From the IMG/VR virus record IMGVR_UViG_2648501802_000002: DNA of 64,000 bases. The stretch is one strand, 5' to 3'. The translations under genes were made by a program, and so were the position numbers. Under the pieces are notes generated by a model. That model searched no databases. It was given only the letters and a program-made list of their open reading frames with translations, and was not told the DNA's origin. Position 1 is the stretch's first letter. Every line of letters starts with the position of its first letter. The stretch is from a virus (lineage: Duplodnaviria > Heunggongvirae > Uroviricota > Caudoviricetes). Shown here piece after piece: positions 1,281 to 1,355 of this stretch.

Positions 1281-1355
1281 GGTAAGGGTATTTTGCGACG
1301 TCGGAGATCGCCGAGCTTGGCAGAGGGTTCGAATCCCTACGAAGTACCCTTACCG
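1281..1355 (+). ncRNA. tRNA-like remnant / structured element with T-arm motif
   Basis: Perfect 10-bp stem GGTAAGGGTA/TACCCTTACC encloses a T-arm-like hairpin AGGGTTCGAATCCCT; no canonical anticodon arm could be folded. Confidence 0.3.

Follow-up and report, generated by a model that had tools for sequence, protein, structure and literature searches.

The locus examined here raises the question of what lies directly after the tRNA-Thr gene in the leader of the ban operon of P1-type phage-plasmids: a tRNA, the remnant of one, part of a protein-coding gene or a structure of another kind. It is contained in a stretch of 64,000 nucleotides (nt) from a Caudoviricetes virus (IMG/VR record IMGVR_UViG_2648501802_000002), which is referred to as the window and to which coordinates refer unless another locus is named. 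A first-pass annotation had noticed, eight nt after tRNA-Thr, a perfect stem of 10 base pairs (bp) around a T-arm-like hairpin, and had suggested a decayed tRNA or a processing structure. Here, we identified at positions 1274-1360 a conserved, strand-specific structured element that is no tRNA gene, no neutrally decaying pseudogene and no part of the annotated protein Plp. It is composed of a 20-bp stem (the holder) and a tRNA-like interior (the cargo).

Structure and conservation of the element

Both parts of the originally described hairpin are present. GGTAAGGGTA (1281-1290), which begins 8 nt past tRNA-Thr, pairs perfectly with TACCCTTACC (1345-1354), and GGTTCGAATCC is found at 1326-1336 within the T-arm-like hairpin AGGG-TTCGAAT-CCCT (1324-1338). 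However, the stem exceeds the 10 bp first reported: positions 1281-1294 and 1341-1354 form 14 bp (two of them G.U), and beyond the bulged A1280 another 6 bp are formed by CACAAC (1274-1279) and GTTGTG (1355-1360), which brings the total to 20 bp. The fold of 1273-1358 has an energy of -36.5 kcal/mol (z = -4.7), and none of 200 shuffled sequences was equally stable. The covariance model of the element (R1) matched 1272-1364 with 104.2 bits (E=2e-25), which was the sole strong match within the window. The parts of the element are as follows:

1274-1360, plus strand: whole element, 20-bp holder stem and tRNA-like cargo (covariance model R1, match at 1272-1364)
1274-1294, plus strand: 5' arm of the holder stem, consisting of CACAAC, the bulged A1280 and GGTAAGGGTATTTT; pairs with 1341-1360
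1295-1311, plus strand: D-arm-like hairpin GCGAC-GUCGGAG-AUCGC; predicted fold, pairing without covariation
1312-1321, plus strand: stub CC(R)-loop-(U)GG with a hypervariable loop, at the place of the anticodon arm; RNAalifold pairs C-G, C-G and R-U
1323-1339, plus strand: T-arm-like hairpin (G)AGGG-UUCGAAU-CCCU(A) with a canonical T-loop
1341-1360, plus strand: 3' arm of the holder stem, consisting of GAAGTACCCTTACC and GTTGTG

The cargo has the consensus 5'-GCGAY-GUCGGAG-RUCGC-C(R)-loop-(U)GG-Y-AG-AGGG-UUCGAAU-CCCU-AC-3', and the loop of its first hairpin has the core R-Y-Y-G-G, as in the tRNA D-loop (that of E. coli tRNA-Phe, for comparison, is AGUCGGUA). The order of parts appears to be that of a cloverleaf whose acceptor stem has been lengthened to 20 bp and has no CCA, with the elbow kept and the anticodon arm deleted. 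With at most one mismatch, the T-loop motif occurs four times in the 64 kb (1.24 expected), always on the plus strand and between 1170 and 1819, namely in three tRNAs and in the element.

A motif scan of IMG/VR, in which the interior motifs were required, retrieved 121 viral copies. Ninety-seven of them follow tRNA-Thr in P1-type genomes, and the other 24 belong to other phages, including the Enterobacter podovirus BUCT554. Covariation of the stem was computed on 23 distinct sequences, among which double (compensatory) changes were observed at 10 of the 20 pairs. Altogether 93.9% of the cells were paired, a value that none of 500 column shuffles matched, and slid controls reached 35-58%. The pair adjacent to the junction varies between U.G, A-U, C-G and G-C in otherwise identical stems, and some copies (L091, L095 and L116) have wholly different stem sequences in which pairing is kept. 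The stem contains 48 G.U cells and 8 A.C cells; therefore, the fold is read from the plus strand, which is the transcribed strand. Variation is distributed very unevenly over the element:

Long stem: 33 of 40 columns variable, mean pairwise identity 72%
Interior (D-like hairpin and T-arm): 5 of 40 columns variable, mean pairwise identity 96-97%
Stub loop between the two hairpins: 7 of 7 columns variable, mean pairwise identity 55%

The stub also differs in length by 1-3 nt between copies. Within the interior, the D-like hairpin has 3 variable columns of 18 (identity 95.7%), and the sole variant of its loop is a U>C change at the position that would be Y16/17, a pyrimidine position in tRNA. Stem and loop of the T-arm are identical in all 121 copies, also in searches in which the T-stem was left free. 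Three relaxed interior patterns recovered the same set of copies plus the single U>C variant of the first loop, and a stem-anchored scan followed by the covariance model found, among the matches listed, no divergent full-length relatives, only stem-level matches of 27-42 bits. The family is narrow and belongs to Enterobacteriaceae phages: species-representative genomes gave one match in 185,579, and the element was found in 462 of 5,426 complete E. coli genomes (about 8.5%, P1-type phage-plasmids). The existence of the element is firmly supported, and selection on it is well supported. Because of the compensatory changes in the stem, the 96-97% identity of the interior and the 24 copies in non-P1 contexts, the element is not neutrally decaying.

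With regard to tRNA identity, ARAGORN made no call on the element in its default and armless (mitochondrial) modes, and at 80% thresholds it proposed only an implausible 95-nt 'tRNA-Tyr' that overlaps tRNA-Thr. An Rfam scan of 400-3000 at E<=10 gave no tRNA match on the element, and Rfam at gathering thresholds over the whole window gave no family match on it; the overlaps of Rfam 15 models with 1274-1360 were noise (ALIL, 12.4 bits; a plastid untranslated region, 16.9 bits). On 15 related loci, Rfam found nothing beyond STnc100 and one tRNA. When single features of tRNAs were considered, the T-arm of the element agrees with the loop consensus GTTCRANYC and is invariant in all copies. CGA(Y)-GUCGGAG-(A)UCG resembles a D-arm, in which G18G19 would help to form the elbow, and its U>C variant fits the Y16/17-like position, but covariation and U8/A14 are absent. 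The acceptor end is unlike that of a tRNA: the 20-bp helix runs on into GTTGTGAGG without CCA, which all three neighbouring tRNAs encode. We agree with the earlier remark that no anticodon arm can be folded, its place being taken by the CC(R)...(U)GG stub with a hypervariable loop of 4-7 nt between the two conserved hairpins.

Holders and cargos in phage leaders

BLAST identified window 400-3000 as the ban-operon leader of P1-type phage-plasmids, with 95-98% identity to P1, SJ46, D6 and hundreds of IncY plasmids. The P1 gene annotation was moved onto the window through alignment to the annotated P1 record. The leader has the following features, in which S1, S3 and S4 denote sibling holder hairpins:

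Up to 442: end of dmt (P1 annotation via alignment)
433-462, plus strand: C1 operator and Pban promoter of the ban operon (aligned to L001 1533-1562; palindrome 431-462)
557-658, plus strand: dicF-like region ending in an intrinsic terminator (P1 annotation via alignment; terminator stem 623-645, then a T run)
837-912, plus strand: S1, with a different cargo (inverted repeat I3, 17-nt arms; z=-6.0; R1 15.4 bits, stem only)
1119-1194, plus strand: tRNA-Asn
1197-1272, plus strand: tRNA-Thr(UGU), directly upstream of the element, CCA end at 1272 (ARAGORN; Rfam, 72.9 and 74.5 bits)
1273-2096: variable non-coding stretch
1497-1596, plus strand: S3, with a different cargo (23-nt arms, 91% complementary; z=-6.5; R1 22.3 bits, stem only)
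1747-1833, plus strand: class II tRNA-Ser(UGA) (ARAGORN)
1832-1949, plus strand: S4, with a different cargo (35-nt arms, 80% complementary; z=-6.0; R1 13.3 bits, stem only)
1943-2063, plus strand: STnc100/PasD-like module just upstream of tciA, its 5' strand overlapping the 3' arm of S4 (RF02076, 37.8 bits, below the cut-off of 47; E=5e-6)
2097-2793: tciA, tciB and tciC
2797-2872: tRNA-Ile2(CAU)
Farther downstream of tRNA-Ile2: ban

In P1 and P7, the element is located inside the unit of Pban and the C1 operator. Since the P7 record places the tRNAs and ban under this operator, the element is, judged from its position, on the transcribed strand of a long untranslated, C1-repressed lytic transcript. 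Within 380-3100 no promoter-like site was found, and the only terminator was that of the dicF-like region; the Pban start region would serve the transcription of the element, the tRNAs, the sibling hairpins and the STnc100-like module. The leader of about 2.2 kb (about 460-2100 and 2800-3100) has no convincing open reading frames (ORFs) and forms a chain of very stable hairpins (z -4.7 to -6.5).

The arms of S1, S3 and S4 (AACAGGTAAGGG / AACGTTGAGAAC / AACGTTAAGAG) are related to the stem of the element with compensatory differences, and S1 shares the identical 16-nt sequence GCACAACAGGTAAGGG with 1273-1288. The interiors of the three hairpins, each with two small hairpins of its own, are unrelated. 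To see how general the holder is, IMG/VR was scanned with one stem allele, AACAGGTAAGAGC...GCTCTTTCCGTTGTG, allowing any content (loci L125-L240); all counts are lower bounds. At least 127 instances were found, carrying at least 80 distinct cargos of at least 41 unrelated families with lengths of 42-66 nt; the tRNA-like cargo accounts for 8 of the 127 among the matches listed. These instances form arrays with STnc100-like modules, with a constant stem and a hypervariable top. P7 has the same holder at the same site after tRNA-Thr, but with another cargo of 35 nt. A miniature inverted-repeat transposable element was considered and rejected, as conserved termini with unrelated interiors are the reverse of such a family.

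Some cargos resemble tRNA more fully. L094 has, at the genomic position where L013 and L069 carry the element, a sister cargo of 83 nt that relaxed ARAGORN reads as tRNA-Ala, and the cargo of L146/L193 has a T-arm at the same place. These sister cargos support a tRNA ancestry, which, together with the T-arm and the D-loop-like GUCGG, makes it plausible that the cargo derives from a tRNA.

Outside P1-type genomes, ARAGORN found no tRNA in 17 of 18 loci tested. Genes for Q antiterminators (PF03589, PF06530) are located upstream of these copies and holins and lysis genes downstream, so that the element is placed in a late-operon leader, often beginning directly past a tR'-type intrinsic terminator (several copies). 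In L091, a full-length STnc100 small RNA (sRNA; 109.7 bits) starts 18 nt 3' of the element, and in most other copies the 3' arm continues into GTGGTGAATGCG...GCCGGAGWTCAGCACCGGCCACCAC, an STnc100/PasD-like fold. Both STnc100 and PasD are prophage sRNAs occupying the niche between Q and the lysis genes. The 5' end of PasA is made by cleavage of a longer transcript (preprint 10.64898/2026.05.13.724894).

The window contains a second STnc100-like module at 1589-1740, which has the same ends (TTGTGGTGAATGCG...GTCGGAGATCAGCACCGACCACCACAA) as the one at 1943-2063. The 5' strands of the closing helices of the modules at 1943-2063 and 1589-1740 overlap the 3' arms of S4 and S3, respectively, and alternative pairings are possible. 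The junction between holder and STnc100-like module was found in 918 of 5,426 complete E. coli genomes, unannotated every time. A junction sequence, TGCTCTTTCCGTTGTGGTGAATGCGCAGGCTGATGCGC, has 93-100% identity in dozens of unrelated phages (Klebsiella, Erwinia, Salmonella, HK633) and occurs at L005 2568-2615 and at window 1931-1960 and 1369-1380. It reads as a boxA (its first 8 nt match the rrn boxA) followed by a spacer and a boxB-like hairpin, and is a possible candidate for an antitermination signal of the nut/rrn type.

Other parts of the leader are mosaic as well. A non-coding stretch 3' of tRNA-Ile (ggcacatgcgtcgt..agcggtc..ggtagccggaatgtgcaag, window 2895-2975) is common to BUCT554-type leaders (L005 2340-2425), where it lies upstream of the BUCT554-type copy of the element as another leader module. 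Window 655-690 (TTTTCGTCATGGTTAGCGACTTTGCGG), just past the dicF-like terminator, is homologous to sequence 3' of the element in lambdoid late leaders (L013/L069/L094), in which the element or a sister cargo is inserted between the terminator and the TTTTCGTCATGGTTAGCGACTTTGCGG-type sequence; thus, the P1 ban leader and the lambdoid late leaders share ancestry. About 130 nt upstream of the element, L096 and L114 have, at the position of tRNA-Thr, an insertion of about 60 nt after the D-arm/anticodon region (GCCGGTTTAGCTCAGTGGGAGAGCACGAGAGCC...GGTCAGCGGTTCGAATCCGTTAACCGGCACCA). ARAGORN in intron mode made no call on these interrupted sequences, which may represent an intron-bearing or disrupted tRNA.

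The extra Ser-like tRNA suggested in the first-pass annotation turned out to be a real and already known tRNA-Ser(UGA), a conserved phage class II tRNA that is called by ARAGORN and annotated as tRNA-Ser in D6, Cyrano and rV5. The ARAGORN cloverleaf of 1747-1833 has a perfect 7-bp acceptor, G73, CCA, anticodon UGA, a 3-bp D stem and a 6-bp variable arm with a GCAA loop. Column identity is 94% across the window, D6, Cyrano and the virulent phage rV5, and the variable arm of the rV5 gene shows a compensatory C-G>A-U change and a longer loop. The Rfam scan gave no RF00005 match at 1747-1833, and RF01852 (tRNA-Sec) stayed below its cut-off of 47 on all copies scored (window 43.4, Cyrano 42.8 and rV5 41.5 bits); in the D6 record, the amino acid was left uncalled by tRNAscan-SE. 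The gene is present in 22 of 87 P1-type loci, and P7 (L241 1618-1704) has the same tRNA-Ser(UGA)-like gene, unannotated in its record. In rV5, an unannotated 97-nt Rfam tRNA match (L123 790-886, 35.5 bits) is located between the annotated tRNA-Ser and tRNA-Thr, and BLAST similarity of rV5 to the window runs beyond tRNA-Ser into the 5' part of S4 (window 1747-1916).

Two features unrelated to the element were found elsewhere in the window above Rfam thresholds: group II intron domains at 57702-57965 (RF02001, 95.5 bits; RF01998, 46.8 bits) and the pair of isrK and the C4 antisense RNA in the P1 immunity region (27861-28071).

Possible functions and alternative explanations

The explanation that we tentatively favour, and regard as quite possible rather than probable, is that the holder is a generic double-stranded RNA (dsRNA) processing unit in the ban leader and the cargo an exapted mimic of the tRNA elbow with a function of its own. 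In the lytic cycle, transcription would run through the long leader, in which the holder would act as dsRNA punctuation of RNase III size between RNA modules (tRNAs upstream, STnc100/PasD-like RNAs downstream), tolerating nearly any top. The cargo would be a tRNA fragment reduced to the D-loop/T-loop elbow. Once excised, it may form a small, stable tRNA-like RNA that could be read by elbow-recognising host factors and would be neither charged nor used in decoding. A processing structure, as the first-pass annotation had also proposed, is probably the likeliest reading for the 20-bp stem; it does not explain the invariant tRNA-like interior.

RNase III fits about 22 bp and tolerates bulges (PMC6212723), and the holder, with 20 covariation-supported bp and one bulged A, has the size of such a substrate (a duplex of about 20-22 bp, small bulges allowed). 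The enzyme also takes part in the maturation of T4 tRNAs (PMC4810235). The tRNA elbow is read by RNase P, RNase Z and the CCA-adding enzyme (PMC4919913).

Several observations weigh against this explanation. A pure processing hairpin would need no near-invariant interior of 40 nt, and such a top indicates a second, cargo-specific function. P7 and Cyrano carry tRNA-Thr without the tRNA-like cargo, which is therefore not needed for the maturation of tRNA-Thr. The canonical cleavage sites, which for RNase P and RNase Z are 12 bp away from the T-loop, would fall inside the duplex, an unfavourable position as long as the stem itself has not been cut. Covariation is absent from the inner hairpins, whose helices are invariant, and RNAalifold favours another interior with UCGGA:UUCGA complementarity; folding energies do not discriminate between a three-way and a four-way junction. 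The invariance of the interior is in part an ascertainment effect of motif-anchored searches, although the relaxed patterns and the holder-only scan gave only the U>C exception. Finally, we infer every mechanistic step from sequence.

A wider proposal, which we consider rather unlikely, is that the element is the most recognisable member of a modular RNA system of temperate enterobacterial phages, in which a bulged holder of about 20 bp would carry at least 41 swappable cargos of about 50 nt, alternating with STnc100/PasD-like sRNAs in lytic leaders. The cargos would be trans-acting sRNAs or decoys released by processing, and the tRNA-like one a minimal elbow mimic engaging a host tRNA-reading enzyme or an anti-phage tRNA-directed system.

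Among the alternatives, a trans-acting decoy or sponge has a low but appreciable probability. Here the cargo would bind, titrate or recruit, during lytic growth, a factor of the host or of a rival that recognises the elbow or T-arm, such as RNase P, TruB/TrmA, the CCA-adding enzyme or a tRNA-directed toxin or defence nuclease, while the holder would present and stabilise it. Stem and stub have turned over, but the D-like loop and T-arm have hardly changed; this pattern suggests that the elbow is recognised by its sequence. Expression appears to be confined to lytic-cycle leaders, the region is a hotspot of phage tRNA genes and tRNA-like cargos, and elbow-reading factors are well documented (PMC4919913). 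On the other hand, most known tRNA-directed nucleases act on the anticodon loop or the CCA end, neither of which the cargo has, and any partner is putative. The element is also dispensable in P7 and Cyrano, and it is rare outside Enterobacteriaceae phages (the single match among species genomes mentioned above).

Somewhat less likely still, the element might be a cis-acting structural filler with a functionless top, whose packed helices, possibly with boxA/nut-like junctions, would shield the leader from Rho and RNase E and let transcription reach tciABC, tRNA-Ile and ban. A leader of this length consisting of stable hairpins without convincing ORFs would agree with this explanation, as would the recurrence of TGCTCTTTCCGTTGTGGTGAATGCGCAGGCTGATGCGC at about 100% identity in many phages with its resemblance to boxA plus hairpin, and the more than 40 swappable tops argue that the top is often irrelevant. 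However, it leaves unexplained why the cargo has stayed 96-97% identical in lineages that have come to differ at 33 of 40 stem columns. In addition, the boxA-like stretch is base-paired within the holder, and the 3' arm of the window copy (GTACCCTTACC) is not boxA-like.

It is very unlikely that the element is a non-functional pseudogene, that is, a duplicated tRNA that lost its anticodon arm and is drifting. This idea would account for its location directly after two tRNA genes of the window, the canonical T-loop, the D-loop-like GUCGG and the fuller tRNA-like sister cargos. However, the 20-bp stem is unlike that of any tRNA and is maintained by compensatory evolution, the interior hardly varies between P1-like, lambdoid and Uetakevirus contexts, variation is focused only on the stub loop, and most of the 24 non-P1 copies, which are found in unrelated phages, are away from any tRNA. 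The 'decayed tRNA' of the first-pass annotation is therefore not supported for the present state of the element, which is under purifying selection.

We give just as little credit to a single-stranded DNA (ssDNA) recombination site of the attC kind serving cassette exchange, suggested by AAC...GTT ends, an imperfect dyad, an extrahelical base and a hypervariable centre. The conserved stem with more than 40 differing centres, the allelic swaps of cargos at fixed positions and the bulged base are what such a site would show, and strand-asymmetric G.T pairing also fits folded ssDNA. No integron-type integrase was seen among the analysed neighbour genes of any copy, however; the ends fit the attC core consensus only loosely, the orientation always follows the surrounding transcription unit, and the swaps are equally explained by homologous recombination between conserved arms.

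The idea that the element is part of the minus-strand gene plp can practically be dismissed. This P1 gene (gp072, 'putative lipoprotein'; NC_005856.1 69472-69849, L001 2338-2715, window 1243-1533 minus strand) overlaps tRNA-Thr and the element; minus-strand ORFs are annotated over the element in the P1 and BUCT554 records, and one minus-strand frame is stop-free through it in most variants, but the spanning ORFs vary from 33 to 168 amino acids with unrelated flanks, the ORF is closed in L013, variants differ in frame through an indel of 1 nt in the stub loop even though the nucleotide sequence is invariant, the peptide in common is the antisense translation of the T-arm, Pfam gave no match, and PGAP annotates nothing there in RefSeq plasmids. 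The plp ORF is almost certainly spurious. Similar minus-strand 'hypothetical protein' calls are found over the same kind of sequence in Cyrano and BUCT554. Hammerhead, twister and other ribozymes, retron msr/msd, a CRISPR-repeat mimic and a put-like antiterminator as in HK022 were also rejected, as core motifs or partner genes are absent and Rfam gave no match.

P1 is a classical model phage, yet this stretch has been either unannotated or labelled as the Plp protein. Phage lytic operons have long leaders that seem 'empty', but part of this sequence consists of RNA modules under selection, arranged in a chain, and the element provides a small and concrete case of tRNA mimicry in a bacteriophage transcript. 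If holder and cargo should prove to be a general means by which phages produce or display sRNAs, the repertoire of phage non-coding RNAs would be larger than annotated, and the origin of prophage sRNAs such as STnc100 and PasD would be explained. For annotation pipelines, there is a case for dropping plp-type ORF calls and adding a model of the RNA family.

Relationship to known systems

The element is an undescribed RNA family of a known general kind. In the literature on RNAs of the P1 ban leader, tRNA-like prophage RNAs and their processing, where our search was thin on subscription journals, no description of the element or of the holder architecture was found.

With canonical and phage tRNAs the element shares the T-arm with its GGUUCGAAUCC loop, the R-Y-Y-G-G hairpin, the order of stem, D-like hairpin, (stub,) T-arm and stem, and the location in a phage tRNA cluster. 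It differs in closing with 20 bp instead of a 7-bp acceptor, in lacking the discriminator, CCA and U8/A14, and in having a stub of 2-3 bp for the anticodon arm.

YrlA (RF02553) and the tRNA-like domain of transfer-messenger RNA (tmRNA) are likewise non-decoding and have a tRNA D-loop/T-loop elbow on a long helix. In YrlA, a loop caps the acceptor and the long helix stands where the anticodon stem would be, and tmRNA keeps an acceptor with CCA, whereas in the element it is the acceptor side that is lengthened by the long helix, with a stub on the anticodon side. The Rfam matches of YrlA and tmRNA in the region are weak chance matches off the element: that of YrlA (25.6 bits, below 69) covers the two genuine tRNA genes at 1139-1256, and rsr was not seen among the neighbours analysed. 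We know of no link between the element and Ro/Rsr.

MALAT1 mascRNA and the tRNA-miRNA transcripts (TMER) of murine gammaherpesvirus-68 are eukaryotic and have a normal acceptor end, at which RNase P or RNase Z acts. As in these RNAs, a tRNA-like fold is located in a longer non-coding transcript beside small regulatory RNAs, whose release it could direct; in the element, however, the acceptor is buried in the 20-bp helix, so RNase III would be the likelier first nuclease.

Phage RNase III hairpins, such as those of the T7 early region, the lambda N leader and the T4 tRNA precursor, have in common with the element a hairpin some two helical turns long that has a small bulge, a position between functional RNAs of a polycistronic transcript and a top that tolerates change. 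The known sites have simple or internal loops, whereas the element has a conserved multi-helix tRNA-like top and is only a putative site.

The RNAs that most often accompany the element, STnc100 and PasD (RF02076; preprint 10.64898/2026.05.13.724894), occur in the same leaders and the same niche (from Q to the lysis genes; TerB/tciA neighbours), usually with the element immediately 5'. They are nevertheless separate RNAs: in L091, the STnc100 model begins 18 nt past the element without covering it, and the element has neither a terminator nor an Hfq-type 3' end.

Within P1 itself, the C4 antisense RNA of P1/P7 (RF01695; window 27984-28071) is reportedly matured by RNase P, according to Hartmann et al. 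in 1995. C4 is unrelated to the element in sequence and locus and has a defined antisense function, but it provides a precedent for tRNA mimicry in the biogenesis of P1 RNAs, in which a tRNA-processing enzyme acts on a transcript that is not a tRNA.

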